Of a stretch of DNA of 64,000 nt, positions 2 to 51,800 are shown one piece after another. The notes below the pieces were generated by a model that was not told the DNA's origin, did no database searches, and saw nothing but the letters and a program-made list of their open reading frames with translations. Each line of letters starts with the position of its first letter. Position 1 is the first letter of the stretch. A program made the position numbers and the translations under genes. This stretch comes from Candidatus Latescibacterota bacterium. Its GTDB lineage: Bacteria > Latescibacterota > UBA2968 > GCA-2709665. The DNA lies in assembly GCA_965219455.1 (NCBI GenBank), contig OZ244744.1, positions 1,376,001 through 1,440,000 on the forward strand. Direction: 5' to 3'.

Positions 2-679
2 ACTCTGGTTCTTGAAGCCGCATTGCGCCGCAATGACGTGCATGCGATCGCCAGTGAATCTGAGCATGTACTTCGCCCTTTCGATCCGGTGATACCGGAG
101 ACGATTTCGAAAGGAGGTACCCAGACGATCACCAAATTGCAGGGAAACGTAGGCAGGCGAGAAATTGAAATGCCTGCACAGATCCGTTCGACGCAGGGAG
201 GAGTCGGAGAAATGGTCTTTCAGATACGCGTCCATCCGGTTCACGATCTCGCGCCGAAACGGAATGCGCCGCTCGAGCAGTTCGTGGATCGCGTACATCA
301 GATCGTCCTTCGTCACCGGTTTGACCAGGAAATCTCGAGCACCGGCCTTCATCGCTCGGACGGCTTTCGTGAGGCAGTCGGTCTCCGACAAAAAGACGAC
401 GTCGGTGTTTATGGACTCCTGCTGAACGGCTCGCAGAATTTCCAGACCGTTGAGATCCTGCAGAGCGGTGTTCAGGATGGCGATATCGAAGGGTCCGTTA
501 CGGAGGGACCTTAGCGCGTCTTGACCGTTCAGCGTTGTCCGGACGTACCACGTTTCCGACTCCTGCCGGATGATGTTCTGGAGGCGCACACGAACCCGGC
601 GGTCGTTGTCCGCGACGAGGAATGCGATCATCCGGTCCGGGTCACGAGACGTTCGATCCTGTATCGCTGCAATTGACAT
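2..679 (-). CDS. Response regulator, receiver + AraC-type HTH (partial, runs off left edge; not in ORF track)
   Basis: Manual translation of minus strand: MSIAAIQDRTSRDPDRMIAFLVADNDRRVR...FDIAILNTALQDLNG...VVFLS...AMKAGARDFLVKP...LCRHFNFSPAYVSLQF...HRIERAKYMLRFTGDRMHVIAAQCGFKNQS; start codon uncertain. Confidence 0.85.
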   Translation of the reverse strand, partial: MSIAAIQDRTSRDPDRMIAFLVADNDRRVRVRLQNIIRQESETWYVRTTLNGQDALRSLRNGPFDIAILNTALQDLNGLEILRAVQQESINTDVVFLSETDCLTKAVRAMKAGARDFLVKPVTKDDLMYAIHELLERRIPFRREIVNRMDAYLKDHFSDSSLRRTDLCRHFNFSPAYVSLQFGDRLGTSFRNRLRYHRIERAKYMLRFTGDRMHVIAAQCGFKNQS

Positions 680-701
680 TGAAACAGGCGTTCCATATAT
701 T
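673..701 (+). promoter_or_regulatory. Sigma70-type promoter of sRNA copy A
   Basis: TTGACA (673-678), 17-bp spacer, TATATT (696-701). Confidence 0.75.
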
Positions 702-707
702 TATCGT

Positions 708-823
708 GAGGGCCGCATCCTGTCTCACGGCACAAAAGCGCCGAGGGACAAACGGGGTGTGCGCCTTTCTGGATGACCGTCGGTTTTCGACTCTGGCCGG
801 TCAGGGGACCGACGGTCTTTTCT
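708..823 (+). ncRNA. Putative sRNA, family 1, copy A (antisense to region upstream of the AraC regulator)
   Basis: Promoter directly upstream, long 5' stem-loop, terminator hairpin GACCGTCGG...CCGACGGTC + TTTT; homologous to 39332-39447 (-). Confidence 0.65.
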
Positions 824-1246
824 ATCTAATCGTGCTCGTCCGTGAATTACAAAGCCCATTAACGCGGCTTACGTTGCTCGTACTCCATAATGGAATTTAT
901 CCGACATACAACCGATCCACAGTTGCACCCGCGATAGGTCGTTTGGCGTCGGTTTTAGTCGCCAGCAATTACCCGCCAGTGCCACGGTTCGCTGCCGGTC
1001 GATTACACTGGAGAAATGCTCTTCCAAGTGACTGAAGTTACGGGCCTCTTCAAGTAGGCCCTGGATTCCTGAAGCATCCTGGCCTATATTTACCATAAGA
1101 AGATAATAAATTATTTATGACAAACACGTGACAATAAGCCCATATTTTATGATATTATTGTGATATTGCCCAATGCGGCATGATTGATCGGTTCCGGTCG
1201 GCCCGATGTCTCCTGGCCGTCCGTCTTAGCCGATGGAGGAGAGAAC

Positions 1247-3664
1247 GTGGCGCAAAAAGACGAGCGCGATCGGCAGATATCGGTCCTCCGCGACCGCCTG
1301 CTCAGGCTGAGCGAGGCCAGCCTTCGCATCAACGAAAGCCTGGACTTCGAAACGGTTCTGCAAGGGGTACTGGACAGCGCCAGAGCGTTGACTGACTCAC
1401 GGTACGGCGTCATTACGGTCTTCGAGGCAACAGGAGAAATACAGCACTTCCTTGCCTCGGGGATAACTCTCCATCAGGCGCAGCAATTGTGGCAAATCCC
1501 TGGAGCGATGCAGTTCTTCGGGTTGCTCCGGGAGATTCGAGAGCCGTTGAGGTTGCGCGACTTTCACAGCCACACCCGGTCATTGGGTCTTCCCGAATTC
1601 CGCCCTCCTATGCCCGTCAGCGAAGCGTTGTCCTTTCTGGCATCGCCAGTCCGGCACAGAGGCAAATCTGTGGGCAACATCTACCTTGGCGAGAAGAGTC
1701 GAGGGCGCGAGTACACCGAGGATGACGAATCCACCCTCACGATGTTTGCAGCCCAGGCGGCGCTGGTCATCGGCAACGCGCGGAGCTATCGGGAAGAGCA
1801 ACGCGTCAGGACAAACCTCGAAACACTCATCAACACGTCACCGGTGGGCGTGGTGGTCTTCGACACGATTACTGGAAAGCTGGCGTCATTCAATCGTGAG
1901 GCCGCGAGGATCCTGGAGGGCGTGCGAATCCACGGTCGACACCCTGAAAGACTGCTGGAAGTCATGACGATCCGTCGAGCCGACGGGCGGGAGTTCTCCC
2001 TGCAGGAACTTTCCGTAGACCAGGCTATGAAGCCAGGCGAGACGGTGCGCGCCGAGCAGGTTGAGTTTCGAGTCCCCGATGGAAGGAAAGTAACCGCGCT
2101 GATGAACGCCACGCCCATCCGAACGGATGATGATTGTGTGGAGTCCTTTGTCGTGACCCTACAGGACTTGGCGCCACTGGAGGAACTGGAACGGCTTCGT
2201 GCCGAGTTCCTGGCTATGGTCAGCCACGAACTCCGTGTCCCGCTGACGTCGATCAAGGGCTCGACCACCACCTTGCTCGACGACTCGACTGTCCTCGACC
2301 CCGCCGAAGCGCGACAGTTTTACCGGATCATCGACCACCAAGCCGACCTCATGCGGGACCTGATCAGCGACCTGCTGGACGTCGCGCAGATCGAGACCGG
2401 CTCGCTCTCGGTCGCTCCCAGGCCGACTGACCTGACCGACATCGTCGACCAGGCCAGAAACACGTTCCTGAGCGGCGGGGGCAGGAATAGATTTGAAATC
2501 GACTTCCCGTCGGATCTTCCGTGGGTCATGGCGGACCGGCGCCGCATCGTGCAGGTGTTGAACAATCTCATTGCCAACGCCGCACGATACTCAGAAGCGT
2601 CCTCTGCCATACGGCTAACAGCAGTCCGGGAAGACATTCACGTGGCGATTTCCGTTGCCGATGAAGGCGCGGGGGTTGCCGCGGATCTCCTGCCACACCT
2701 CTTCGGGAAGTTTTCGGGGATCGACACCGTTAACGGCAAGCGCAGGGCTTCTGATACCGGTCTGGGCCTCGCCATCTGCAAGGGAATCGTGGAAGCGCAC
2801 GGAGGACGGGTGTGGGCCGAAAGCGACGGACCCGGCCTGGGCACTACATTAACCTTCACCGTCCCCGTGGCTGAGGAGACCCCTGGCGGCTCGGTCCCGG
2901 AAACCGTCAGTAAGACCGAGCATTCTCGTGATCCTCACCGACCAGGCGACAAGATCCTCGTTGTCGATGACGACCCACAAACGCTGAAGTACGTTCGTGA
3001 CACCCTTACGAGTGCAGGCTACACGCCCATCGTGACCGCGGATCCCGAACAGGTCGCACGTTACATCGCGTCGGACAGACCCCAGTTGGTCCTTCTGGAT
3101 CTGTTGTTGCCCGGCGCTGACGGAATTGAACTGATGGAAGGGATCCTCGAGGTTACCGAAGTGCCGGTGATCTTCCTGTCCGCATACGGTCGCGACGAAA
3201 CTATCGCTCGGGCATTTGAATCGGGCGCAACGGATTATGTGGTCAAACCCTTTTCCCCGACGGAACTCGTCGCTAGAATTAAATCCGCACTAAGAAGGAG
3301 GGAGACCGGCCAGGATCGGGCTGAGCCCGAACGGCCCTACGTGCTTGGGGACCTGACGGTCAACTACGAGGAGCAGCGCGTGACTGTGGCGGGATGCCGC
3401 GTGCAATTGACCGCCGGCGAGTATCACTTACTGTACGAACTCTCGATAAGACCAGGTCGGGTACTGACGTACGAACGACTCTTACGGCGAATCTGGGGCC
3501 TACGGAACGTCAACGATTTTCGTCGAATCCGCACACTCGTCAAGAGGCTGCGACGCAAGCTGGGCGACGACGCCAACGACCCACGTTACATTGTCACGGA
3601 GCACGGTGTCGGATATCGTATGGGCAAGCCTGAAGAGATCCGGGAAGCGTCGTCTCAACCGTAA
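1247..3664 (+). CDS. Cytoplasmic hybrid sensor kinase/regulator: GAF-PAS-HisKA-HATPase-REC-OmpR/PhoB winged helix
   Basis: H-box FLAMVSHELRVPL, N-box QVLNNLIANA, GTGLGL-like DTGLGLAI, REC ILVVDDD...LLD, wHTH LTAGEYHLL...IVTEHGVGYR; GTG start after GGAGGA. Confidence 0.93.
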   Translation: MAQKDERDRQISVLRDRLLRLSEASLRINESLDFETVLQGVLDSARALTDSRYGVITVFEATGEIQHFLASGITLHQAQQLWQIPGAMQFFGLLREIREPLRLRDFHSHTRSLGLPEFRPPMPVSEALSFLASPVRHRGKSVGNIYLGEKSRGREYTEDDESTLTMFAAQAALVIGNARSYREEQRVRTNLETLINTSPVGVVVFDTITGKLASFNREAARILEGVRIHGRHPERLLEVMTIRRADGREFSLQELSVDQAMKPGETVRAEQVEFRVPDGRKVTALMNATPIRTDDDCVESFVVTLQDLAPLEELERLRAEFLAMVSHELRVPLTSIKGSTTTLLDDSTVLDPAEARQFYRIIDHQADLMRDLISDLLDVAQIETGSLSVAPRPTDLTDIVDQARNTFLSGGGRNRFEIDFPSDLPWVMADRRRIVQVLNNLIANAARYSEASSAIRLTAVREDIHVAISVADEGAGVAADLLPHLFGKFSGIDTVNGKRRASDTGLGLAICKGIVEAHGGRVWAESDGPGLGTTLTFTVPVAEETPGGSVPETVSKTEHSRDPHRPGDKILVVDDDPQTLKYVRDTLTSAGYTPIVTADPEQVARYIASDRPQLVLLDLLLPGADGIELMEGILEVTEVPVIFLSAYGRDETIARAFESGATDYVVKPFSPTELVARIKSALRRRETGQDRAEPERPYVLGDLTVNYEEQRVTVAGCRVQLTAGEYHLLYELSIRPGRVLTYERLLRRIWGLRNVNDFRRIRTLVKRLRRKLGDDANDPRYIVTEHGVGYRMGKPEEIREASSQP

Positions 3665-34648: not shown

Positions 34649-37600
34649 TTAACTCTTGCCGAACGCGTTGGCGAATATTACAAAATCACCGAAGCCGATG
34701 GCGCCATTCTCGTCCAGGTCGTACTTCGCGTCATATCCCGCATCGCCTTCGCGCAGGCCGAACCGTTGCGCGAACAGCACAAAGTCGGCAAAGCCGACGC
34801 TACCGTCGTCATTGAAGTCGGGACCGGTCGTCTTGGGTGGAACCGTCGGTGGAACCGCCGACGCGATATCCCACATCAGCACTGAGCCATCCCGTGATCC
34901 TGAAACCAGCGTGCCGCCATCCGGCGAGAACGCCACCGAATAGACCCATCCACTGTGGCCTTCGAGCGTGGCGACGTCGGTACCCGTGGCCACGTCCCAC
35001 AGCTTGACCGTGTTGTCGCTCGACCCGGCGGCCAGCGTGCTCCCATCCGGCGAGAACGCCACTGAGCCCACTCCGCCCGTGTGCCCGTGGCCTTCGAGCG
35101 TGGCGACGTCGGTACCCGTAGCCACGTTCCACAGCTTAACCGTGCCAAGCCTGAACCCCGAGGCCAGCGTGCTTCCATCCGGCGAGAATGCCACCGAATA
35201 GACCCGGCCACTACGCCCTTCGAGAATGTCGACCTCGGTTCGCGTGGCCACGTCCCATAACCGGACCGTGCCGTCCTGCGACCCCGACGCCAGCGTGCTC
35301 CCATCCGACGAGAACGCCACCGAATAGACCCAGCCACTATGTCCTTCGAGAGCGGAGACCTCGGTTTGCGTGGCCGCGTCCCATAACCGGACCGTGCCAT
35401 CCTGCGACCCCGTGGCCAGTACGCCGCCATCTGACGCAAACGCCATCGACGATAGAGACGTGTGCCCATAGACGGCCCCGGCATTGCCCGTCTCCATATC
35501 CCTTACGATGACCGTGCCGTCCGCTGCCCCGGTGGCAAGAAGAGAGCCATTGCGCGAGATCGTTACCGAATAGACTCCATCCGCATGCTCTTCCAGGGTG
35601 TTGATCAGTTCTCGCGTGGCCACGTCCCACAGCTTGACCGTGCGGTCGCCCGATCCGGAGGCCAGCGTGCTCCCATTCTGCGAAAACACCACCGAATTGA
35701 CCCCATCCGTATGCCCCTCAAGAGTGGCAATCTCGGTTCGCGCGGCCACGTTCCACAGTTTTACCGTTCGGTCGTTCGAACCGGAGGCCAGCGTGCTCCC
35801 GTTTTGTGAAAACACCACCGAATTGACCCCATCCGTATGCCCCTCGAGAGTTTCGACCTCGGATCGAGCGGCCACGTCCCAGAGTTTAACCGTATGGTCG
35901 CTCGATCCCGAAGCCAGCCGGCCGCCGTCCGGAGAAAATGCCACCGAAGTGACCCCAATCGTGTGCCGCCGCAATGTGGCGACTTCTGTTTGCGTGGCCA
36001 CGTCCCACAGCTTGACCGCGGCATCCTCCGCACCGGAGGCGAGCGTGGCACCGTCCGTCGAAAACACCACCGAGTTGACCCGATCCGCATGACCCTTCAG
36101 GCTGGCGACCCGTGCGCCAAACTCAACATTCCATAATTCAACGTGGCCATTGTTCAACCCCGCCGCGAGGGTGCCCTGCCCTGAAAACGCCACTGAATGG
36201 ACACGAGCGGGACTTGGCAGCAGAGCGGAGGCACGGGAGGTGCTCACTTCATACAACCAGACACCGATCCCGCTGGCCACGGCCAGCGTTCGTCCATCCG
36301 GCGAAAGGGCTACCGCACGGTCGCTCTGGCCAATGGCTCCTTTGCCCAGGCGCGCCGTCGCCCTCTCGGGCAGCCGCCATTTCCGGTAGTCCCCGTCCGA
36401 CACGACCACGGGGGTTCCCACGCCTTCTGCGGAAAAGGTCGCCAACTCACGACCGCCGATCGTTACCACCACGGTGTTTGTGCCCGCCCGGGCGCCCAGC
36501 GTCAGGGTGGTGGCTGCGAGGCCACCCGCATCCGTCCGCGTATGCTGGACCGTGAACCTCCCGCCGAGTTTGCCGTCGCCGGAGATGACCTCCACACCGA
36601 AGGGCCGGAGACCCGGCCACTCAGACAGTTCCCACAGCAGCACCGTGCCATCCTCCGACCCCGTGGCCAACGTGGCCCAATCCGGCGAAAACACAACCGA
36701 ACGGACGTCGCCGTTATGACCCTCCAGCGTCGCGACCTCGATTCGCGCGTGCACGTCCCACACCTTGATTGTGTTGTCGTGCGACCCGGAGGCCAGCCTG
36801 CTGCCGTCCTTCGAAAACGCCAGGGATCCGATGCCCCTCGAATGTCCTTTGAGGGTGGTGACCTGGGTTTGCAAGGCCAGGTCCCATATCCTTACCGTGC
36901 CATCCTCCGAACCGGAGGCCAACGTGCCTCCATCCGGTGAAAATACCACCGAAGTGACACCCCCTCTATGCCCTTCAAAGGTGGCGACCGCCCTTCGCCT
37001 GGCGACGTCCCACAGCAGCACCGTGCCATCCTCCGACGCGGTGGCCAGCGCGACCCCATCCTGTGAAAACACGACCGAAGTGACACCGCCCGCGTGACCT
37101 TCAAGGGTGGCTGCCGCCGATCGCGAAGCCACGTCCCACAGCAGCACGGTGCTATCCTCTGACGCGGTAGCCAGCGTGTCCCCTTCCGGCGAAAACACCA
37201 TCGACGTGACGCTTCCTCTATGGCCATGGAGGTTACCGACCTGTATTCGCGCGTTTACGTCCCACAGATTTACCACGCCCCCCGCAGATCCGGAGGCCAG
37301 CGTGTCACCATCCGACGAAAACACCACCGAATTGACCGCAGATTTATGACCGCCAAATGCGACGTAATATCCTGTCTCTACGTCCCAGAGCCTCGCCGTG
37401 CCATCCTTTGACGCGGTGGCCAGCGTGCCGCCGTCCTTCGAAAACACCACCGACGTGACGCTACCCGTAGGCCCTTCGAGGGTGTCGACCACCCAACGCC
37501 TGGCGACGTTCCACAGCAACACGTTGCCATCCTCCGACGCTGTGACCAGTGTGTCCGCATCCGGTGAAAACGCTACCAGAGTGAGACTGCCCGTATCACC

Positions 37601-38550
37601 CTTAACAGCCCGTTGAAAAAGTCCATCCGGGCTGCGTCCGGCTCTTGTGGCCGAATTACTGCGTTGCACTCCCTCCCCGAATCCCCCGATTCGACGCGGT
37701 CGTGCGTCTTGTCTTCGGCCACAATAACTCGGCCTCGCCTGCAGAGCGACTTTATCAACGGACTGTTAAGGGTGTCTGCCTCCGATGGGGAGGCGACGTC
37801 CTATAGCAACACCGTGCTATCCCCCGACACGGTGGCCAGAGTGCCGCCGTCTTGCGAAAACGACAGCGAAGTGACATCATCAGCAAGCCCTTCGAGCGTG
37901 CCGGCCTGCGTTCGCGTGCTCACGTCCCAAAGCAACACGGTGCCATCCTCCGATGCGGTGGCCAGCGTGCCGCCATCCGGCGAAAACACGACCGAATTGA
38001 CATTATCCGAATGACCTTCGAGGGTGGCCGTCTGTGATCTCGACGCCGCGTCCCACAACTGCACCGCGCCATCCTCCGACGCGGCCGCCAGCATGTCCCC
38101 CTCCGGCGAAAACACCACCGAAGTGACTCTACCCGCTGATACATCGAGAGTGGCTGCCTCTGATCGCGTTACCACGTCCCACAGTAATACCGTGCCGTCC
38201 TCTGAAACCGTGGCCAGCGTACCCCCATCCGGCGAAAACGACACCGAATTGACCCGGCCCGAACTCGGCAAAAGCGCCAGGGTACGGGCCGTGGCCCCGT
38301 CGTACAGCCACACGCCGATGCCGCTGGCCACGGCCAGCGTCCGCCCGTCAGACGAAAGAGCCACCGCCCGGTTTCCCGATCCGATAGCTCCCTTTCCCAG
38401 GCGCGCAGTCGCGCCGTCGGGCAGATGCCACGTCGGGGGGGCCTCTTCCAACACGCCCACGCCGGCGCCAGACACTGAAATGCCGCAAAACAGCGCGATG
38501 AGCGCCAGCATCGACACCGCCGTTTTCTTGTCGAAGATTTCGTTCGCCAT
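34649..38550 (-). pseudogene. Secreted WD40-repeat protein with C-terminal dockerin/EF-hand-like motif, disrupted by amber stop (37801-37803) and MITE
   Basis: ORFs 37801..38637 and 34649..37669 join in frame (TVLL*DVASPSEADTLKGDTGSLTLVAFSPD) after removing the MITE; >20 WD repeats; PDFNDDGSVGFADF...YDLDENGAIGFGDF. Confidence 0.85.
37606..37765. mobile_element. 160-bp MITE with TTAA target duplication
   Basis: TIRs CAGCCCGTTGAAAAAGTC / CAGTCCGTTGATAAAGTC (16/18); TTAA at 37602-37605 and 37766-37769; excision restores frame. Confidence 0.9.
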
Positions 38551-38785
38551 GCCGCACTCCTTTACTGTTGCCATCCTGGAAGACACCTCCACATCCATCG
38601 ACCGCTTTGGGAAATTGTAGTCAGATGGCGGTGTCATGCGCAGCGCTGAATATGTATCAAACCTGCCAGCGTCGCAATAATATACGCGAAATATCAGTAA
38701 GATTGCGGTCTTTTTTCGTAGAATACGCTGGCGTTTTGCATTTGGAATCCTGAGCGCGTGGTGTCATTTGCCGAACGATAGGGGC

Positions 38786-39164: not shown

Positions 39165-39265
39165 TGAAAACTTGCGCCAAGTTTGTAAATTAATCCGTAA
39201 AAAGTAGATAAATATGTAAATTTTAAATAGTTGAATATTGTTTGACTAATGGTTATATTATGGTT
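39165..39265. promoter_or_regulatory. AT-rich divergent promoter region
   Basis: AT-rich island; TTGAAT (39231)-17-TATATT (39254) on + strand. Confidence 0.5.
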
Positions 39266-39331: not shown

Positions 39332-39447
39332 GCAAAAACCGTCGGTTTCCCTGACCTGCCAGAGTCGAAAACCGACGGTTATCCAGGAAGGCGCGCAACC
39401 CTTTTGTCCCCTGGCACTATTGCGCCGTGAGACGGAATGCGGCCCTC
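39332..39447 (-). ncRNA. Putative sRNA, family 1, copy B (antisense to leader of surface-protein gene)
   Basis: Homologous to 708-823; terminator AACCGTCGG...CCGACGGTT + TTT. Confidence 0.65.
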
Positions 39448-39454
39448 ATTTTGA

Positions 39455-39483
39455 AATATAGAGAACCTGTCTCGTTTTGTCAA
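39455..39483 (-). promoter_or_regulatory. Sigma70-type promoter of sRNA copy B
   Basis: TTGACA (39483-39478), 17-bp spacer, TATATT (39460-39455). Confidence 0.75.
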
Positions 39484-39639
39484 ATGCCGCGATCCGGAAT
39501 CGAGCGCGTCGAGACGCGAACCGGATTATCGAATTCCTCGTCGCACCTGGCCGCGACGACGTCTTACCGCGGCGCCGGAACATCGTTGGCCTGTTGCGAG
39601 TTGGTCAAGACTGCCAATCGGAAGGGAAGGAAGGACATC

Positions 39640-42600
39640 ATGTCCAGGTTTTTCGTTGTACCAATCCTGCTCACGTTTGTCGTCTTGACCAACGCCGAAG
39701 CGCAGCAGACGCCCATCCTTCTGGTGTCCAACATCGATAAAACCCGGAATACCGGTCCCGGCTCCCGCCTTGTCGCAGGCGAATCGATGGTCGCAATCGG
39801 TTTTGGTACCGGCGACGACAATGGCGGCTACGCGCTTACCGGGCTCGACGTCAAATTCCATCAGGACCAGGGGACCGGGGAAGAAGTCCGGATCGAGCTC
39901 TGGTCGTCCGGTTATCCGAGGAGCAACGGGAATCGACCCTACGAAAAGCTCGTGGTCTTTGACAATCCGGACCGCATCACCGAAGGCGACAACGCGTTTA
40001 CACTGCCACAGCCTTTTTATCTGAACGACGGTTGGACCTATTTCATCGTCGGCAGAGCACCCGAATACAGACCCGGCGACGAGAGCACGCAGTGGTGGTT
40101 CGCCACCACGGACTCGGACGCACAGAGCGACCGCATCGATAACGACTGGTGGATCGGAGACAACACGTTCCGATACGCCGGTTCAGGGGCCTGGCCGGAC
40201 CGCGTTACCACGCTCAGCAGAGTCCCGATGATCGCGATCAAAGGCTACGAGCTCGACCGTCTGGTCTACAACACCGGCGAGAGCACGGACGGATACCACG
40301 TCGTGGGAGGCAACTGGCTGGCGCAGGTCTTCACCACGGGCCACGACAACGAAGGCTACGACCTGCACAGCATCGCCTTGGCGTTGGAAGAGGATTCGGG
40401 CCGGGGTCTTCCCACCGACGGCGATCACCTGACCGCGTCTCTGTACACGACCAGAACGGCCGGCTCCGAACGGCATCCGGACCGCAAGCTGTTCGACTTC
40501 GTGAGTCCCCCCGTATTCAGGGAAGGCATAGACAACGAGTTCGTCGCGCCGCAAGGATCGACGCTCGAGCGGGACACGCGATACGCCTTCGTCCTGCGCC
40601 GGAGTACCGGCGCGTGGGCCTACGTCCGGCGCACCCGCGGCGACGACGAGGACGGCCAGGACGAATGGTGGATCAGAAACGAGGTCTACAAATCCACGGA
40701 CGGCGCGGCGTGGAACCCGGATACCCGGGCGCTGAAGATGAGGCTCTACGGCAAGAGGCGCTCCGAAGAGATACCAGGGCAGGTCCTCGATATCGGCGCC
40801 GACCGCACGGAGCGCGAGGGGAGCAATTTCGACGTCCCGGTGACGTTGTCGGAAACGAGCGCGCAGGCAGTGTCCGTCTCCTTCCGGGGCACGGGAGGAA
40901 CCGCCGCCGGGAGCGACTACAGTCATCATGGACAGCCGATGGTAACGATCGAGGCCGGACAGACGACGGCATGGATCAACTTCGACGTCACCAACGACGA
41001 TGCACAGGAGGACGAGGAGTACTTTTTTCTGGAGCTCCACAGCCCGACCCATGCGGTCATCGGGCGCGCCCGGGCACGGATCACCATACCCGCGAACGAC
41101 GAACCGCCGGACGACGCCGGCGCCCCGTTCGGAACGCCGGCGAATCTGACGGCGACGTTGGGTAACGCGGCGGCAACGCTGAGCTGGCGCGCGCCGGCGG
41201 CAACGGCCGACGTCAGGCGCCACGAGTACCGCTACAGGACGGGGGGGAGCTATCCCTCAACGTGGACGCCGATTGAAGACAGTGCGCCCGGCGGCGCCAA
41301 CGCGGCGGGCGTGACGGTGACGGGGCTGCGCGCAGGCGTGGCGTATACCTTCCAGGTAAGGGCCGTGAGCACGGGGGGGGAAACGAGCGACGCGGCGACG
41401 GCGGCAACCCTGCCCGTCTGCAGCCGCACCTCCAGGGTGCGCAACGCGATTCTCGCCAGGCTGCCCGGGATCAATAACTGCGCTGACGTCACCGCCTACA
41501 ACCTCCGGAACATCGATGGCGAGATGAATCTCCACGGCAGGGGCATCACGTCCCTCAAGGCCGGGGACTTCTCCGGGTTGAACGGGCTGGAATTCCTGAC
41601 GCTGTCCGGGAACAGACTGAGCACGCTCCCGGCCGGCGTGTTCGACGGCCTTTCCGCCGTGCGCGAGCTTTCCCTGCAGACCAACGACCTGAGTTCCCTG
41701 CCCGACGGCGCCTTCAGAGGCCTCACCGGGCCGCTGTGGATCAAGCTGTCCGGGAACGAATTCACCGCGTTTCCAGGTGAGGCGCTGGACGACCTGGGCT
41801 CCAACCTTACGGGCCTGTACCTGGGGTTCAACGACCTCAGCTCACTGCCGAACGACGCCTTCGAAGATTTCAAGCGGCTGAGGACCATCGACCTGGAGAA
41901 CAACGACCTGACCTCGCTGCCCGACGGCATCTTCGACGACGTCGGCACCCTGGAATACCTGTACCTCGGCAGCAACGACCTGACGTCCCTGCCCGGCGGC
42001 GTCTTCGACGACCTCCGCGGCCTCCTGCATCTGTATCTCACGAACAACGAGCTGACCGCCGTGCTCGTTGGCGCGTTCGACCGTCTCGCCGCTCTGCAAG
42101 ACCTGGACCTGGGCGACAACGACCTTACGTCCCTGCCCGACGGCGTCTTCGACGGTACGCGGGACCTGAAGAGGTTGAACCTGAAAGGCAACAAGCTGAC
42201 CGCCCTTCCCGAGGGTGCGTTCGAGGGCCTCTCGAAGCTGACCCGGGTGCATCTGGACGGCGTCACCCTGATCCCCGGGCTGCTGCTGGAGGGCGGGGGC
42301 GTCGCGGTGAGGGTCGCGGAAGGCGCGCCCTTTCCCATGAACGTGACGCTGTCGGCGGAGGGCGCCAATCTGGCAAGTACGGCGGCAACCATCCCGGCCG
42401 GCGCCACGACCAGCGGGGCGATCGCCGTGACGCTGCGCGGCGGCAGGTCGGCGCGGGGCACGATCACCGTGGCGTCAGCCACCTTCCAACGCGACCCGGA
42501 CGACTACGAGGGCCTCGACATCCGCACCGGCGCCGGCCTGATCCTCACGCGGGGATCGGAGGGACTGCAAGGGGAGGCGGTTCCCGCGCCGGAACCCCCG

Positions 42601-43707
42601 CCGGACCCCGACGAGGAGGGGACTGCGCCGACCATCCTGTCGATCGCCTTCACCAGCGACCCGGGGCGGGACAACGCCTACGCCTCCGGCAACCTGATCG
42701 ACGTGACGGTGACCTTCAGCGAGCAGGTGCGGGTGACCGGAAGGCCGCAGCTGGAGCTGGACTTCGACGGCGTGGCCAAAGTGGCGACGTACCGCGGCGG
42801 AACGGCCACAACGGCGATCTTCAGCTACAGCGTGAGAGCGGCCGACGTGGACGTCGACGGCATCGCCATCGGCGCGAACAAGCTGAGCCTGGACCGCGCC
42901 TCCATCTGGGACATGGGCGTGCCCGGGAACAGGGCCAACGTGACCCACGACGCGGTGCCCCCCGACCCCGGCCACAAGGTGAACCCTCCGGACGTGACGG
43001 CGCCGGTCTTCGTGAGCGCCGCGACCTCCGATGACGGGACCCGGGTCGTCCTCACCTTCAGCGAAAGGATCACCGTACCGGCGCTGCTGCGCTCGATCGT
43101 CCGAATCGTCCGAGTCGGCCTCGCCCGGTTCTTCATAGCGGTGATTGGCGTGACAGTGGACGGCGATGAGGTGATCCCCTTCACCGCCGGCATTTCCCGG
43201 ACCAACCTCATCATGACCTTGCGTGAGCCCGTGACCCGGGGGCAGGAGGTCGCCGTGGCCTACGACAACATCTTCGCCCGCGACGCCGTCGGCATTTTCA
43301 TCGACGAAGCGGGCAACGCCCTGCAGAACTTCCCGTCCCGACCGGTCACGAACCGGTCCACGGTGGCCGACTCCGAGGAGGAGGACACCACCCCGGATCT
43401 GAAACTGAGCCGGACGGAACTTCCGGTCACCGAGGGGGAGAACGCCGCCTACTCCGTGGCCCTGGGTAGCCAGCCCACGGCCTCGGTGACCGTTGCGATC
43501 GCGAGCTCTTCGAGCAAACTGTCGGTCAGTCCCGGAAATCTCGCGTTCACCACGGAAAACTGGAACGACGCCCAGACGGTAACGCTCACCGCGGGCCAGG
43601 ACGACGACAACCTGAACTACTGGGTACGCGTGAGTCATACGGCCGGCGGAGGGGGCTACGACTCGGCCGCGGCGAACGTGTACGTGGTCATTCAGGATGA
43701 CGACTGA
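39640..43707 (+). CDS. Large secreted protein: two N-terminal beta domains, Calx-beta, FN3, ~9 LRRs, SwmB-like and Ig-like domains
   Basis: Signal peptide AEA-Q, EDEEYFFLEL Calx-beta, YTFQVRAV FN3, LxxLxLxxNxLxxLP repeats. Confidence 0.85.
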   Translation: MSRFFVVPILLTFVVLTNAEAQQTPILLVSNIDKTRNTGPGSRLVAGESMVAIGFGTGDDNGGYALTGLDVKFHQDQGTGEEVRIELWSSGYPRSNGNRPYEKLVVFDNPDRITEGDNAFTLPQPFYLNDGWTYFIVGRAPEYRPGDESTQWWFATTDSDAQSDRIDNDWWIGDNTFRYAGSGAWPDRVTTLSRVPMIAIKGYELDRLVYNTGESTDGYHVVGGNWLAQVFTTGHDNEGYDLHSIALALEEDSGRGLPTDGDHLTASLYTTRTAGSERHPDRKLFDFVSPPVFREGIDNEFVAPQGSTLERDTRYAFVLRRSTGAWAYVRRTRGDDEDGQDEWWIRNEVYKSTDGAAWNPDTRALKMRLYGKRRSEEIPGQVLDIGADRTEREGSNFDVPVTLSETSAQAVSVSFRGTGGTAAGSDYSHHGQPMVTIEAGQTTAWINFDVTNDDAQEDEEYFFLELHSPTHAVIGRARARITIPANDEPPDDAGAPFGTPANLTATLGNAAATLSWRAPAATADVRRHEYRYRTGGSYPSTWTPIEDSAPGGANAAGVTVTGLRAGVAYTFQVRAVSTGGETSDAATAATLPVCSRTSRVRNAILARLPGINNCADVTAYNLRNIDGEMNLHGRGITSLKAGDFSGLNGLEFLTLSGNRLSTLPAGVFDGLSAVRELSLQTNDLSSLPDGAFRGLTGPLWIKLSGNEFTAFPGEALDDLGSNLTGLYLGFNDLSSLPNDAFEDFKRLRTIDLENNDLTSLPDGIFDDVGTLEYLYLGSNDLTSLPGGVFDDLRGLLHLYLTNNELTAVLVGAFDRLAALQDLDLGDNDLTSLPDGVFDGTRDLKRLNLKGNKLTALPEGAFEGLSKLTRVHLDGVTLIPGLLLEGGGVAVRVAEGAPFPMNVTLSAEGANLASTAATIPAGATTSGAIAVTLRGGRSARGTITVASATFQRDPDDYEGLDIRTGAGLILTRGSEGLQGEAVPAPEPPPDPDEEGTAPTILSIAFTSDPGRDNAYASGNLIDVTVTFSEQVRVTGRPQLELDFDGVAKVATYRGGTATTAIFSYSVRAADVDVDGIAIGANKLSLDRASIWDMGVPGNRANVTHDAVPPDPGHKVNPPDVTAPVFVSAATSDDGTRVVLTFSERITVPALLRSIVRIVRVGLARFFIAVIGVTVDGDEVIPFTAGISRTNLIMTLREPVTRGQEVAVAYDNIFARDAVGIFIDEAGNALQNFPSRPVTNRSTVADSEEEDTTPDLKLSRTELPVTEGENAAYSVALGSQPTASVTVAIASSSSKLSVSPGNLAFTTENWNDAQTVTLTAGQDDDNLNYWVRVSHTAGGGGYDSAAANVYVVIQDDD

Positions 43708-44021: not shown

Positions 44022-44798
44022 ATGAACTACGTGCCGTCTTTTTGCATCGTCGCGTTCATGGGTCTGGCGTCCACCGTTGCCGCGGAACGGCAGCCGTTTG
44101 AGGGACGGGTCGTGAACGGGAAGTCCCTTCCAATCCATCGGGCGCGGGTCGTGCTTTACAGGCTCGACAATCCGCGCGCGCGGCTGACGACCATCACGGA
44201 CGAAAACGGCGCCTTCTCGCTGCCCCTGAGAGACCTCGCCCCGCCGCGACCCAACGCACTGCGGCAGAACCATCCCAATCCGTTCAATCCCTCCACCCTC
44301 ATACCCTTCGAGATCTCGGAGGGTGGACACGTTCGCCTGGACGTGTTCAACATTCTGGGCCAACGCGTGGTCACGCTGATCGACGAAGAGCGCCCGGCCG
44401 GGTTTCACAGGGTGCTGTGGGACGGCACGGACGCTGTCGGCCGGGGCGTGAGCGCGGGGGTTTACATCTACCGGCTCAGCACCGGGAACTGGCGCGACGC
44501 GCGGAAATTGATGCTGCTCGACGGCGCATCGGAGCGTTCGGGCGGTGGAGCCTCGAATTTCAGCGAAGAAAAGGCTCACGCGTTCGGCGTGAGGATCACC
44601 GGCGAGGGAATATTGCCGGAAACCTTCACCTGGACCCCCGGCATGGGGTCCCTGGTGGCGGAGGTGAGACGTATCGAAGACATCCTTCCGCCCGAGGTCG
44701 AGCACCCCGATACGGCGGCCAATCCCTTCTCGGGGACCAGCCTCGCCTCGATTATCCAGGTTGTTTCCGCGTACGGCGTCGACCCCGGCGGGGATTGA
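44022..44798 (+). CDS. Secreted protein with FlgD/T9SS-type domain
   Basis: GGAGG RBS, signal peptide, QNHPNPFNPSTLIPF...VFNILGQRV...WDGTD...GVYIYRL. Confidence 0.8.
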   Translation: MNYVPSFCIVAFMGLASTVAAERQPFEGRVVNGKSLPIHRARVVLYRLDNPRARLTTITDENGAFSLPLRDLAPPRPNALRQNHPNPFNPSTLIPFEISEGGHVRLDVFNILGQRVVTLIDEERPAGFHRVLWDGTDAVGRGVSAGVYIYRLSTGNWRDARKLMLLDGASERSGGGASNFSEEKAHAFGVRITGEGILPETFTWTPGMGSLVAEVRRIEDILPPEVEHPDTAANPFSGTSLASIIQVVSAYGVDPGGD

Positions 44799-45033
44799 GC
44801 CGGCCAAACCCATTCATCAAAGAAGCAAGATCACATGGCACATCGGAAATCGATCAAACCGGCATCGGCGGCGCTGGCCGGCCAGGATGGGGTGGTATTC
44901 GGCGCGGTCTGGCGCCAGGACTGACCGGGCAACTGTGGGAGAGGCCACCGCTGGCCCCAGGACCGAGGGCATCCTGCCTCGACATTGGCTCCTTGAGAAC
45001 CCCCCATTGCAATCCATGAAAGGGGACGTTGCC

Positions 45034-48000
45034 ATGGATTTGAAATCGACCGACGTCGACCGGAACGGGCCATCGCCCCGGGCACGACGATGCCTCGCCC
45101 TCGCCGCGGCCCTCTGCAGCGTCCTCTTCGCGGCCTCGCTTGTCATCGCGCCGCCGGCCTCTGCGCAAGACGTGACCATCTGGTCCGCCGACCTGGAGGT
45201 GAAAACCCTCAATGCCGCCCAGGACGAATTCGGTTGTTCCCACACTACCCCCTTTAATGGGCAGTGCGCCAACTCCAATGTTCTATCCGACGACGACTTC
45301 AGCTTGCACGGCAACCCATACACAATCACGAGGATCGAAGACGACGGCAGCGAGCTGGAACTGACTCTGGATACCGCCCTTCCCTCGAACGTGCTCGAGT
45401 TCCTGACCCTGAAAGTGGGCGATACCGAGCTGGCCTTTGAGGACGCCCGCGTCAGCTCCAGCAACAAGCGTTACACCTGGTCGTCCAGCCCCTCCTGGTC
45501 TTTGGGCGACGACGTGGACCTCAGCATCACGGACGCCAGCGGGCCGTCCCTGGTAACGAACACCTCCCTGGATGATAACGAAAGGAACCTCTTTGAAAAT
45601 GGCCATCGAAGTGCGCAAGCATTCACGGCCGGGACCTGGGCGCGGGTCACATTAATCGGAATCGGGATTGGAGATGAAGTCGATGACGACGTGGAGGTCA
45701 CATTGCACAAGGGCGGGGGAAGCAATCCCGGCGACAGACTGAAGAGGCTGTCGAACCCCTCGAGCATCACGGCGGATTTGGTCAACGTATTCACCGTTCC
45801 CGACGGCGGCATCGTGCTGGAGGCATCGAAAACGTACTTCGTGCAGGTCAAAACGACCTCGAGCGACAGGGTAGCCGTTTCCGTAACCGGACCCCTTTCG
45901 GGCGGCAACGCCGAAGACGACGGGGCCGCTGAGAATTGGACCATCGACAATGGTTCGTGGACAAACAGGCCTTCGATCGGTACATGGCAAGCAAGCAATC
46001 AGTCGATGCGAATCGACGTCAAGGGTGAGGTGCTCCTGGACCCGCCGACCAATCCGAGCGCTCGTGCAGTTGCGCCGATGCGGGTCACGCTCAGATGGGA
46101 CAGGACCTTACCGTCTCCAAAAGGCACAATCGATAGGGACGACGGCTACAAGATCGAATGGTCCGCCGATGGCAACGATCCGTGGACGTCGCTCGTGAAC
46201 GTCACGAACCAGTACGTGACCGATAGCGACATCTGGTGCACGTGCTACCCTACGCGATTCAACGACAACACCATCACGCCCGGGACCACGCGCCACTACC
46301 GGATCAAGGCGGTCGACGACGACGACGAGAGCGCCTGGTCCGACGTGGTCAGCGCCACCACGCCGGGGCTGGTGGATTCCGATCAGGGCCGGTTCGAATA
46401 CGGCGCGGTGGTTTCGGAATTCAACGCGCTCACCGATCAGAAGGTGTTCCGAATCGACTTGGATCCGGGCGAGAGCTATCGGTTCACCATCGCGGGGAAG
46501 GCGACCAGGCACCGGGTGATCGTGACCGACCCGGGCGGCACGGAGACCTGGAACGACGTGCTGGAAGCGAACAACACTCTCATACCGAGATTCACGACGC
46601 AGGGGGCCGGCGACCACCAGGTCAAGATCTCGCACGGCGGGAGTCCCGGACAATACACGAGCCTGAACGCGGGATGGTTCCAGTTCGTGCTCGTGCCGGA
46701 GCGCGATGATGAGTCGGAGTTTTCTCTTACTCCCCTCGAGGGCACGTTAGAACTATTGGTACTCAACACCTACGGCGACGTTGACCGCATCGGATTGCTG
46801 GTGCAGCCGGGCAAGGCGTATGCCGTCCGGGTCCGGGGTCGCGAGACGGATGAGGGCACCGCCGCGACGCCGCGGATCAAGCGCGCCATGCCGCCGGCGA
46901 CGACCCACGTGTACAACATGGGCAAGCCGTGGGTGGAGGGCGTGACCACTACCGAGGAATCGACCGTTACCTGTAAGACGACGAAACCGGGCGACAGCGA
47001 TAGGTGCCAGGAATTTCAGGCCTTCGTGATCGACCTGCGGGGGCAGACCGGCGCGCAGCAGACGTGGCACATCATCGTCGCCCCGACGGCGCGCCCCCGC
47101 ACCTATCCGTACCGTGTGGGCATCTACTCAGTACTTCTGGACGAGCTTTCGGCCAGCCAACTGGAGGGGGTGCGGATGCCGCTGAGGGGGTGGTTCGCGT
47201 CGCAGCCGTCGCAGCACGACGGGTCGAAGGCGATCAAGGTCCGGGTGGGGTTCAGCGATGCGGTCGACGAGAGCCCGGAGAACGTGGGCCGGCATGGTGT
47301 GAGCGTGGACGGCGGCGAAGTGACGTCGGTACGCCCGGTGGGCGGACAGGAGCAGGACGACGCGGCGGAGCGCAAGGGGACCCGCTCGGCAAGCGTTCGG
47401 CAAGACGAACAGGAAGACCGGGAGGTCGTGTGGGAGTTCGAGATCGAGCCGGACTCGGACGGTGACGTGACGGTGTCGCTGGAGGCGTGGCGCCCGTGCG
47501 GCGAGCCGGGCGCGATCTGCACCGCGGACGGACGGGTGCTGTCGGAGGGGATCTCGACGACGGTGCGGGGCCCGGCGGCGGATGAGCAAGAGCCTCAGGA
47601 ACAGGAACAGAAACCGCCGGATCAGGAGGAGGAAGAACAACCCCAGGAGCCAGGGCCGCCGGCGCTGACGGCGTCGTTCGAGGGCATGCCGGCGAAGCAC
47701 AAAGGCGAGGGCGGGTTCCGCTTCCGCGTCGCCTTCAGCGAAAACATCGGGATCAGCTTCCGGGCGCTGCGCGAGGACGCGTTCACGGTCAGCGGCGGGC
47801 GCGTGACGGGCGGAAAGCGGGTGGACGGCCGCCGCGACCTGTTCGCGATGACGGTGCGGCCGGTTTCGAACGGTGACGTGACCATCACGCTGCCGGCCGG
47901 GCGCGAGTGCTCGGTGTCCGGTGCGATCTGCACGAAGGGGGAGAACCGGCGCAAGCTGACCAACGCGCCCTCGGCCACGGTGCGGGGCCCGGCGGCAGAA

Positions 48001-48732
48001 ACGCAAGAGCCTCAGGAGCAGAAGCCTCAGGAGCAGAAGCCTCAGGAGCAGGAGGCGGCGGCAGCAGAGCAAGAGCCTCAGGAGCAGAAGCCTCAGGAGC
48101 AGGAGGAGGAAGAACAACCCCAAAAGCCGCCGCCGGCGCCGCGGAACCTGACGGGTGTCGCCAACGACGACGGCTCGGTGACCCTGAGCTGGGACGCCCC
48201 CGGCGATGACTCGGTAACCGGCTACCGGATCCTGCGGCGGCACACCGTCAAGCAGGCCCCGGGCGTGTTCTCCACGCTGGCGGCCAACACGGGCACGACC
48301 GCGACGACCTATACGGACGGCGTCGCGTCGCCGGAGACCCGCTACGCCTACCGGGTGAAGGCCGTGAACGCTGCCGGCGCCGGCAAGCGGTCCAACTACG
48401 TCAAGGTGACCACGAAGAGGGCCGACCCGGCGTCCAAGCCGGCGCTCGCGGACGGGCCGCCGGGCCTGGCGCCGAATGCGCCCAACCCCTTCAACGCCAG
48501 CACCCTCATTCCCTACCGGCTGGACGCGGACGGACCCGTGCGCCTGGAGATCTACAACCTCCTCGGGCAGCGCATACGCACACTGGTGAACGAGGTGCAG
48601 GCCGCGGGGGCCTACCGGGTGTCCTGGGACGCCCGCGACGCAGCGGGGCGGCGCATGTCCTCGGGGGTGTATTTCCTGCGCCTGCACTATCCGGGCGGCG
48701 TGCAGACGCGGAGGATGCTCTACCTGAAATAG
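45034..48732 (+). CDS. Large secreted FN3 protein with Q/E/P-rich linkers and C-terminal FlgD/T9SS-type domain
   Basis: ASA-Q signal, two FN3 domains, duplicated ...AICT domain, QEPQEQKP repeats, PNAPNPFN...GVYFLRL. Confidence 0.85.
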   Translation: MDLKSTDVDRNGPSPRARRCLALAAALCSVLFAASLVIAPPASAQDVTIWSADLEVKTLNAAQDEFGCSHTTPFNGQCANSNVLSDDDFSLHGNPYTITRIEDDGSELELTLDTALPSNVLEFLTLKVGDTELAFEDARVSSSNKRYTWSSSPSWSLGDDVDLSITDASGPSLVTNTSLDDNERNLFENGHRSAQAFTAGTWARVTLIGIGIGDEVDDDVEVTLHKGGGSNPGDRLKRLSNPSSITADLVNVFTVPDGGIVLEASKTYFVQVKTTSSDRVAVSVTGPLSGGNAEDDGAAENWTIDNGSWTNRPSIGTWQASNQSMRIDVKGEVLLDPPTNPSARAVAPMRVTLRWDRTLPSPKGTIDRDDGYKIEWSADGNDPWTSLVNVTNQYVTDSDIWCTCYPTRFNDNTITPGTTRHYRIKAVDDDDESAWSDVVSATTPGLVDSDQGRFEYGAVVSEFNALTDQKVFRIDLDPGESYRFTIAGKATRHRVIVTDPGGTETWNDVLEANNTLIPRFTTQGAGDHQVKISHGGSPGQYTSLNAGWFQFVLVPERDDESEFSLTPLEGTLELLVLNTYGDVDRIGLLVQPGKAYAVRVRGRETDEGTAATPRIKRAMPPATTHVYNMGKPWVEGVTTTEESTVTCKTTKPGDSDRCQEFQAFVIDLRGQTGAQQTWHIIVAPTARPRTYPYRVGIYSVLLDELSASQLEGVRMPLRGWFASQPSQHDGSKAIKVRVGFSDAVDESPENVGRHGVSVDGGEVTSVRPVGGQEQDDAAERKGTRSASVRQDEQEDREVVWEFEIEPDSDGDVTVSLEAWRPCGEPGAICTADGRVLSEGISTTVRGPAADEQEPQEQEQKPPDQEEEEQPQEPGPPALTASFEGMPAKHKGEGGFRFRVAFSENIGISFRALREDAFTVSGGRVTGGKRVDGRRDLFAMTVRPVSNGDVTITLPAGRECSVSGAICTKGENRRKLTNAPSATVRGPAAETQEPQEQKPQEQKPQEQEAAAAEQEPQEQKPQEQEEEEQPQKPPPAPRNLTGVANDDGSVTLSWDAPGDDSVTGYRILRRHTVKQAPGVFSTLAANTGTTATTYTDGVASPETRYAYRVKAVNAAGAGKRSNYVKVTTKRADPASKPALADGPPGLAPNAPNPFNASTLIPYRLDADGPVRLEIYNLLGQRIRTLVNEVQAAGAYRVSWDARDAAGRRMSSGVYFLRLHYPGGVQTRRMLYLK
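48003..48121 (+). repeat. Tandem 15-bp coding repeats (QKPQE)
   Basis: CCTCAGGAGCAGAAG units. Confidence 0.8.
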
Positions 48733-48830
48733 GCCCGGCATGGAGATCGCCGCCGACCGCATCCTCTCGGCCGGAATCGAGGCGGCGGCGGTCCTCAACC
48801 GGCCTTCATGAAAGTAATGGAGACGTTGCC

Positions 48831-51800
48831 ATGCATTTGAAATCGACCCACCACCGGCCGGCCGGGCAACCGCTCCCGGCACAAATGCCCCCCCGATTTT
48901 TTCGGGGCCGCAACGGAGCCGCGGCGATGACTCGCGGCATCAGACCGGTCCGGCTGCCCCGGGTTTCTGCCCTCGTTGCGGTCGCCCGGGTGTCCGCCGC
49001 GGTGTTGTTCGTGCTCTTCGCCGCCCTTCCCGCCACGGCGCAACCTTCCGCACCGCAGGGCTTCGCGGCGTCGAACGGCAACGCGCAGGTGAAGCTCACC
49101 TGGGACGCGCCGGCGGAGGACGCGGACATCGCGCGCCACGAGTACCGGTTCAAGACCACCGGCGACTACCCCGCCGCGTGGACGGCAATCGAGGAAAGCG
49201 CGCCGGGCGGGCTCCACGAGGACTGGGTCGTGGTGACGGGCCTGACCAACGACGTGGCCTACACGTTCCAGTTGCGCACGGTGAACGCGGGCGGCGACGT
49301 CAGCACCGCGGCGGATGCGGGTCCGGCGACGCCGAGGTCCGGCGTCTGCGGCCGCACCGAGCAGGTGCGGGACGCGATCGTGGCTGCGATCGCCGGCGTG
49401 TCGGACTGCGCCGACGTGACGACGGCGGAATTGGCCGATGTGACTGTGCTGGATCTCAGGAGGACGGGCTTCAAGTCTCTGCAGCCGGGCGACTTCTCCG
49501 GCATGGCGGCGCTGACGACGCTCGATCTTGGTGGTTTCAACTATCTCAGTTCGCTTCCCGACGGCGTGTTCTCCGACCTGACGGCGCTGGAGTGGCTCGA
49601 TCTTGGTTCCAACGAGCTCACCTCGCTTCCCGCCGGCGTGTTCTCCGGCCTGACCGCGCTGGAGCAGCTCCTTATCAGCAACAACGAGCTCACCTCGCTT
49701 CCCGCCGGCGTGTTCTCCGGCCTGACGGCGCTGACGAGGCTGGAACTGCACAACAACGGTAGACCCGCTGCCGCTGACCGTGACGCTGGAGAGGAACCCG
49801 GATGCCGTCGAGATCCGCGCGGTGGTGCTGACCGCGGCGCCGTTCGCGGTGCCGCTGAGCGTGAGCGTGGAGAACGGCGGCCTCGCGGGCGGGGCGGCCA
49901 CGATCACGGTCCCGACCGGTGCACGGGAGAGCGCGTGGGTCGGCGTGACCCGCACGGCCGGCACGACCGGGGCGGTGACCGCGGACATCGACCTGACCAC
50001 CCAGCCGAGCCTGCCCACCAACAACGGCGGCTACGCCTTCGTCAAGTCCGCGAGCGACCTGCCGCTGACGGTCGAGCCCGCGACCGATCCGGTCTGGTCC
50101 ACGACCATGACGGCGGGTGACACTCCGGCGGGGCACGGCTACGACAGGACCGACCTCGACGCGCCCACGATCGGGGCGCTCGACGACGACAATTTCGATT
50201 ACGGGTCCTCTTCCTATGGGGTCCTTGCCCTCGACGTGGCGACGAATGTCGTCAGATTCGTCGTCGCCGAGTCCGGACTTCCGACGAATGAAATCCTGAC
50301 GCTGGAGCTCGGCGGGCACGCGCTCGCATTCTCGGATCGACACAACGTTATCAGCGGCCAAAGCCGATGGTATTGGACCGTTCCGGCCGCACTGGACGAT
50401 CTGGAGACCGAGTTTCCGGTCGGGAGCACGGCGACGGTGTGCCTGCGCACGGCGACGCAGGTGTGTCCGACGGGGAGCATCGTGACGCCCACGAACGCGG
50501 CGCCGGCGTTCAGCTCTTCGGCGACGTTCGACGCGGCGGAGAACCAGACGGCGGCCGGCACGGTGCTGGCGACGGACGGCGACACGGACGACGACGTCAC
50601 CGGCTACGCGATCACCGGCGGGGCGGATGAGGCGCTGTTCGAGATCGGGATGACGGACGGCGCCCTGACGTTCAAGACGGCGCCGAACTTCGAGGACGCC
50701 AAAGACCAGGGCACGAACAACACCTACGTGGTCGAGGTTACGGCGACCAGCGGCATGGGCACGCGGGAGAAGACGGCGACGCAGACGATCACGGTGACGG
50801 TCACGGACGTGAGCGGCGAGAAGCCGGCCGCGCCGGCCGCGCCGACGGTGGCGGCGGCCTCGGTGACCAGCCTGACGGTGAACTGGTCGGCGCCGTCCAA
50901 CGCGGGCCCGGCGATTACGGACTACGATTACCGCCACCGGACGACCTCGCCGCAGGGCACGTGGACGGAGGTGACCGGCACGGCGATCACGGGCACCGCG
51001 GCGACGATCGCGGGTCTGGCGGAGAACACGTCCTACGACGTGCAGGTGCGGGCGACCAACGACGAGGGCACCGGCGACTGGTCGGACGCGGGAACCGGCA
51101 CGACGGACGCCAACGCGGCGCCGGCGTTCAGCTCTTCGGCGACGTTCGACGCGGCGGAGAACCAGACCTCGGCGGGCACGGTGGTGGCGACCGACAGCGA
51201 TGCGGGCGACGACATCACGGGCTACGCGATCACCGGCGGGGCGGACCAGGCGCTGTTCGAGATCGGGATGACGGACGGCGCCCTGACGTTCAAGACGGCG
51301 CCGAACTACGAGGACGCCAAAGACCAGGGCACGAACAACACCTACGTGGTGACGGTCGAGGCGACCAGCGGCATGGGCGAGCGGGAGAAGACGGCGACGC
51401 AGACGATCACGGTGACGGTCACCGACGCGGCCGGGGAGGCGCCGGGCAAGCCGGACGCGCCGGACGTGGCGGCGGCCTCGGTGACCAGCCTGACGGTGAA
51501 CTGGTCGGCGCCGGCCAACGCCGGTCCGGCCATCACCGACTACGACGTGCAGTACCGGGAGGGCACGAGCGGCAGCTGGACGGACGGCGGCCACACCGGC
51601 ACCGCCACCACGGCGACGCTGTCGAGTCTGTCGGAGAACACGTCCTATCAGGTACAGGTGCGGGCCACCAACGACGAGGGCACCGGCTCGTGGTCGGACT
51701 CGGGCAGCGGCACGACGGACGCCAACGCGGCGCCGACGTTCACGTCTTCGGCGACGTTCGACGCGGCGGAGAACCAGACGGCAGCCGGCACGGTGAGGGC

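Follow-up and report, generated by a model that had tools for sequence, protein, structure and literature searches.

A multicopy promoter and two-hairpin element in Candidatus Latescibacterota, a likely family of cis-antisense RNAs

Within a 64,000-nt stretch of a Candidatus Latescibacterota genome (the window, by which the whole stretch analysed is meant), two similar loci combine a sigma70-type promoter-like site, P1, with a short sequence predicted to form two hairpins and a U-run. These loci appear to belong to an undescribed RNA family, whose class of mechanism is a familiar one and whose likely function is cis-antisense control. In its specific form, the proposal is that a small RNA of ~114 nt represses the opposite-strand gene in two ways, through pairing with its leader and through head-on promoter interference, and we give this about an even chance of being right. 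The features at the first locus, copy A, are the following:

673-701 (+): P1 of copy A, sigma70-type promoter-like site TTGACA-17-TATATT, its -35 box overlapping the regulator's ATG
708-821 (+): copy A, predicted RNA of ~114 nt, both ends predicted from sequence; hairpin 1 at 708-768, hairpin 2 at 775-817, U-run at 818-821
2-679 (-): response regulator (receiver plus AraC-type HTH_18), presumed cis target of copy A
701-718 (-): possible upstream start M-R-P-S, within the complement of hairpin 1
1184-3664 (+): GAF-PAS hybrid histidine kinase/response regulator, pointing away from the regulator gene and probably starting at GTG 1247

The regulator gene extends beyond the window edge; its full product in the genome has 256 aa. 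A further full copy lies at contig 1375490-1375613, about 390-510 nt before the window start and just beyond the regulator's 3' end, so that the regulator is placed between two RNA copies; an equal tandem layout is found in G006 (L213). The M-R-P-S ORF of copy A is in the regulator's frame but meets a stop at codon 6. The features at copy B are the following:

39455-39483 (-): P1 of copy B, promoter-like site TTGACA-17-TATATT
39334-39447 (-): copy B, predicted RNA with two hairpins and U-run as in copy A
39231-39259 (+): P2, promoter-like site TTGAAT-17-TATATT, facing copy B
39175-39264 (no strand): AT-rich conserved block around and upstream of P2, candidate operator
39477-39587 (+): relic of the response regulator's N-terminal ~37 codons, decayed (46% identity, E 0.003)
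39640-43707 (+): presumed cis target of copy B, a large LRR/fn3/Calx-beta protein whose N-terminus is hydrophobic

Around copy B, a WD40 protein at 34649-38637 (-) is spread over two ORFs in succession (278 and 1006 aa) that may be a single split gene, the segment 38780-38899 is repeated about 4 kb off at 91% identity, and a cluster of very large fn3/cadherin/LRR proteins (1323, 429, 1886 and 2100 aa) occupies 44761-61946 (+).

The preliminary description of this DNA had reported an sRNA gene with one diverged twin, and the likeness on which it was built is real. TTGACA-17-TATATT is present at both copies, matching the consensus at 11/12 positions in each, its -35 box in copy A overlapping the regulator's ATG (679-677, -) as had been noted; the two copies are 80% alike over 213 nt (E 9e-47), and their RNA parts agree in 99/117 columns. 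The closing pair of the terminator does vary, being G-C in A and A-U in B, with 9 AU, 8 GC, 3 GU and 5 unpaired among 25 sequences. The similarity does not, however, start at the predicted +1, as had been supposed: the 61 nt upstream of the -35 box match at 48/61 positions and represent what is left of the sequence encoding the regulator's N-terminus. The idea of a pair also falls away, since the genome has 12 full copies. The RNA part of copy A, an irregular 5' hairpin followed by a 3' hairpin and a U-run, folds with a z-score of -5.2, and that of copy B, with two hairpins and a U-run, with -5.6, none of 200 shuffles being equally stable in either case; the opposite strands fold less well, at z -3.2 for copy A and -3.5 for copy B.

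That a promoter-driven, structured RNA family lies on the strand first assigned to it is well supported by comparative evidence, the RNA itself being a predicted one. The promoter strand folds better in 28/28 copies, the paired columns contain 174 G-U against 53 A-C cells, and homologs keep the pairing, with paired columns covarying beyond 500 shuffles. In the 25-sequence alignment, two-sided changes occur at 13/43 pairs, a count that 0/500 shuffles reach, with 88% of cells paired where slid controls reach 38-49%; the covariation counts are inflated by the relatedness of the sequences, and the pair counts lean towards the adopted structure, which was read from these same sequences. This structure was derived from single-sequence folds and replaces an RNAalifold consensus that mis-registered hairpin 1 (22 pairs). 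Hairpin 1 shows two-sided change at 9/25 pairs, and 7/18 pairs of hairpin 2 covary among 26 wider homologs (0/500 shuffles). The mean frequency of the majority base is 0.98 in the -35 box, 0.59 in the spacer and 0.95 in the -10 box, with the spacer length fixed at 17 nt; these values come from the 23/31 distinct HMM hits passing a loose promoter pattern, a selection that is partly circular. Hairpin 1 varies widely in length between copies, and a distant metagenome homolog shares its outer stem. Hairpin 2 has tandem U-G pairs and a bulge and hardly varies between unrelated loci; since a pure cis-antisense RNA need not keep its sequence, this near-constancy hints at a further partner. Read by eye, the hairpin-2 loop holds a YUNR motif in 24/34 homologs, with 2 marginal and 8 without it (4/38 rows, not of the family, were dropped); the motif is absent from the copies at the sigma-factor locus described below. 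The Rfam comparison that had been recommended gave no match to any characterised family: against Rfam 15, the window had 0 hits at the gathering threshold, the element had no match at E up to 10 and six homolog loci had none at E up to 1.

Searches with nhmmer and the HMM placed the element at 18 sites in the genome, comprising 12 full copies, all confirmed by the covariance model, 2 halves and 4 sites that have just the 3' hairpin. The nearest called gene on the promoter side, read by eye, is on the opposite strand in 11/12 full copies, and in 8 of those it lies within about 430 nt (by eye); the remaining copy (1/12) has no called opposite-strand gene on that side. The genes facing the copies encode a response regulator or large fn3, cadherin, LRR or cohesin proteins. 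The AT-rich block has 17 copies in the genome, 14 of them directly beside an RNA copy or its 3' hairpin, with one more parted from a half copy by a long ORF. At contig 1669580-1671447 (L081, L240), an ORF of 523-543 aa, transposase-like by context and without a Pfam match, splits the cassette between the RNA half copy and the AT-rich block. The block carries the second promoter-like site, P2, which points towards the RNA, and the -10 box of an opposing P2 is located 62-73 nt beyond the RNA 3' end in 13/32 loci listed (by eye). At copy B, a leader started at P2 would hold the full complement of the RNA. Copy A has neither P2 nor an AT-rich block close by, and its only opposing promoter-like site is a 9/12 match at 1172-1144. 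Across three sets of contigs, element DNA is present, with multicopy depth over hairpin 2.

The regulator's N-terminus has left clear remnants in copy B and three other copies and a weak one in a fifth; copy B carries such a remnant, and so the copies spread from the regulator locus. The link drawn earlier between this regulator and the surface-protein cluster is thus better read as a genome-wide cassette duplicated from the regulator's upstream region, with cross-pairing between copies possible. Among the eight regulator loci of the genus, five have promoter and RNA, two the promoter only and one neither; because the three RNA-less loci form one clade (support 94/94 in a midpoint-rooted tree of 8 proteins), one loss of the RNA is suggested. 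Several copies are decayed, and some are therefore passengers. The decayed cassettes at contig 1059255, 1268807, 1272193 and 5590982 have GC-rich, repeat-like sequence instead of hairpin 1 and keep the 3' hairpin (or its end) together with the AT-rich block.

Outside this genome, homologs were found in 9/30 relatives by BLAST and in 11/21 other genomes of the family by covariance model, while within the genus their presence is patchy (6/14 other genomes). With the corrected-structure model, 20/151 genomes of the phylum match, including 9/18 in the family and 9/30 in the sister family; a third family gave 1/64, which is an ordinary terminator, and no other family gave any. The scan of named genomes returned 11 hits, of which 7 carry the title Ca. 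Latescibacterota and 1 Gemmatimonadota, the other 3 being chance. In metagenome contigs, a strict pattern had 0 hits and a looser one 2, of which one is chance-like and one a true homolog (L174), with a branched hairpin 1 and placed antisense between two co-oriented ORFs. Hits in viral contigs (42 and 5) were all read as chance, and weak hits of the hairpin-2 model, at E around 1e-4 to 1e-5, were ordinary terminators with a similar stem base and were not counted.

In other genera a single RNA lies between a MerR-family and a sigma-70-family gene, downstream of a purH-like gene and antisense to all of these, and the identical promoter hexamers recur there. At this merR-sigma junction the RNA is present in 11 genomes and degenerate in 1. 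At 23 loci of three other genera, merR and the sigma gene abut without the RNA (abutting meaning that the merR stop and a motif close to the N-terminus of the sigma factor are 74-114 nt apart), and because of this the strand opposite the RNA is probably operon mRNA; two outgroup genomes likewise have the pair without the RNA. To judge from this locus, gain, loss or movement appears to involve the whole module at once. The merR gene of the sigma locus was not found in the genus (0/14 genomes) or in the present genome. In one sigma-locus copy (L125, G017), an insertion of about 350 nt separates the -35/-10 promoter from the RNA, and a second -10-like box immediately precedes the RNA. In family f3, by eye, merR is followed at 15 loci by Fe-S cluster-type genes, with no RNA. 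There (L154-L168), the same MerR-type regulator, which has a Cys-rich tail and may be an Fe-S or redox sensor, precedes IscA-like and cysteine desulfurase-like genes (by eye) in place of the sigma factor.

In the proposed mechanism, the near-consensus P1 would be strong and would make an RNA ending at the U-run, and the opposite strand would be transcribed across the whole RNA gene, either from P2 or by operon read-through. The two RNAs could form a duplex of ~115 bp, a likely substrate of RNase III, which is encoded in the genome, and in regulator-type copies the duplex would also cover the start region; polymerase at P1 would in addition obstruct the weaker opposing transcription. Within the genus, the regulator's upstream region, with the RNA gene, the opposing promoter, the AT-rich block and the first codons, was copied before many LRR/fn3/cadherin genes, which would thereby have been brought under the same brake as the regulator. 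At the level of sequence, the element has what defines a cis-antisense RNA, namely its own promoter and terminator on the strand opposite the presumed transcript. Neither Hfq nor CsrA was found in the genome. Non-cognate paralogs pair with net energies of -41 to -175 kcal/mol, whereas 100 random genome stretches average -3, and cross-talk between paralogs is thermodynamically possible in these calculations. A bolder and unlikely extension holds that a portable antisense module has moved between unrelated operons across the order, that cross-pairing paralogs form a pooled repressor for a dozen loci and that hairpin 2 docks a partner protein or makes a loop-loop contact; if true, a regulon would have arisen through duplication of an RNA brake and not of a DNA operator, in a genome where Hfq was not found.

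Several other readings have to be weighed against cis-antisense repression. The strong antisense promoter might act by transcriptional interference only, with the RNA a by-product and hairpin 2 merely its terminator; P1 is indeed kept without hairpins at 2/8 of the genus's regulator loci, hairpin 2 has an outer stem like that of ordinary terminators in the phylum and the length of hairpin 1 is loosely held, but hairpin 1 is nonetheless kept and covarying, down to an outer stem shared with the distant metagenome homolog, and where the RNA is missing, P1 is directed at the kinase gene, which it may serve; we hold this account to be improbable. Rather doubtful, too, is a trans-acting or protein-binding sRNA family, whose antisense position would be a by-product of cassette copying. 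The near-invariance of hairpin 2 across unrelated loci and the many paralogs speak for it, but the RNA offers little single-stranded seed, Hfq and CsrA were not found, and the orientation is equal at loci of different origin. Of the two modes offered in the preliminary description, the cis geometry is borne out across unrelated gene contexts, while the trans mode is not, as complements elsewhere in the genome do not exceed shuffles: those of 13-14 nt number 38 against 21-54 and 10 against 7-19 for copy A, and 34 against 22-60 and 13 against 2-15 for copy B (8 shuffles each).

In plasmid copy-control systems, an RNA is known to block translation of a short leader ORF, and here the RNA could similarly block an ORF beginning M-R-P-S that is fused or coupled to the regulator. 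An ATG, GTG or TTG is at the site in 25/25 aligned copies, followed by Arg in 22/25, Pro in 23/25 and Ser in 21/25 with synonymous codons, and the ORF is in the regulator's frame in four relatives' loci, its stop touching the next ATG in two others. Yet the third-position excess within the stem is not significant (5/14 changes, p 0.13), most changes leave the RNA stem intact as well, being neutral through G-U pairing, the start is missing in the five sigma-locus copies checked and ORF lengths run from 5 to 267 codons, so that we regard this reading as quite unlikely. A 5' leader attenuator or riboswitch for the same-strand downstream gene, in copy A the histidine kinase, would explain why P1 faces the kinase gene in A and in the RNA-less paralog loci. 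It is very unlikely all the same: no conserved antiterminator was found in 25 sequences, where structures barred from forming hairpin 2 are on average 12 kcal/mol less stable (2-17) and inconsistent with one another, the next gene at the sigma-factor locus is head-on rather than on the same strand, and the kinase has nearer promoter-like sites, at 1117-1156. Finally, the dispersed and partly decayed copies, their patchy presence and the gain or loss at the merR-sigma junction might recall a MITE, the end of a mobile element or a functionless duplicated relic, the first of which had been named beforehand as an identity that would undo the claim. The boundaries of homology are ragged and differ from copy to copy, with no sharp shared ends bearing terminal repeats, the promoter and the covarying structure are kept across two families, and plasmid and phage collections held no match to the element, all of which makes this origin exceedingly improbable.

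Among known systems, the plasmid and IS countertranscripts CopA and RNA-OUT and the Sib-like type I antitoxins are tightly folded RNAs of ~100 nt made from a strong promoter. The present element resembles them in its tight fold, its near-consensus promoter-like site and the YUNR motif in the hairpin-2 loop, but it is chromosomal and comes with no replicon, transposase or conserved toxin ORF; a search for a type I arrangement found no conserved short hydrophobic ORF on the opposite strand, where ORFs of 5 to 267 codons share no body. In the available portions of the sources, DonS RNAs of Bacteroides are described as cis-antisense RNAs of 78-128 nt, with many loci per genome, that are divergent to, and repress, susC, a large envelope-protein gene (PMC7366714, PMC13750123). 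Compared by these descriptions, size and divergent geometry match, whereas the phylum and the promoter type differ; the DonS target is a susC homolog of a polysaccharide utilisation locus, while the targets here are a response regulator, a sigma-70 factor and LRR/fn3/cadherin proteins, and the copies here are recent sequence paralogs carried with an opposing promoter. For RnaG-icsA of Shigella flexneri, the accessible part of the source describes convergent promoters 120 bp apart at one locus, a strong antisense and a weaker sense one, the antisense RNA lying over the leader of a surface-protein mRNA and acting by interference plus pairing, with a terminator induced in the mRNA (PMC2879508). 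Convergent promoter-like sites likewise occur here at copy B and 12 further loci, and none was found close to copy A, but the two -10 boxes of copy B are about 190 nt apart, the element is multicopy and there is no conserved induced terminator. When eight leaders were folded in silico, free and blocked, no shared hairpin-plus-U-run appeared on the opposite strand, and RnaG-type attenuation is unsupported because no conserved opposite-strand terminator forms when the RNA's site is blocked. By the tests made on these sequences, the family falls outside DonS, RnaG-type attenuators, type I antitoxins, riboswitches and the Rfam families, and no description of the element was found in the literature searched, mostly the main texts of freely accessible journals.

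For small RNAs of Latescibacterota, that literature yielded none, and one unrelated paper only; a genomic paper on sponge-associated members, in the part of its text that is available, does not mention small RNA, ncRNA or antisense. The element adds a concrete cassette before at least six eukaryote-like repeat-protein genes, and it bears on their control in this phylum. It also documents how a single-copy intergenic RNA can turn into a multicopy control element, its function being a predicted one, by promoter capture. The repeat proteins, together with the available part of PMC12993501, suggest a sponge habitat. In genus g6, a shorter element with a promoter and two hairpins (L115:1501-1582; L117-L119, L121, L194, L198, L200-L202) lies antisense between a lipoprotein gene and a probable TonB-receptor gene, in an iron-uptake-like operon. 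A strong Shine-Dalgarno sequence is complementary to its first hairpin, and in several copies a mini-ORF of start, Phe and stop comes next. This element and another one after uvrA (L114, L115) may be relatives of the family or convergent with it.
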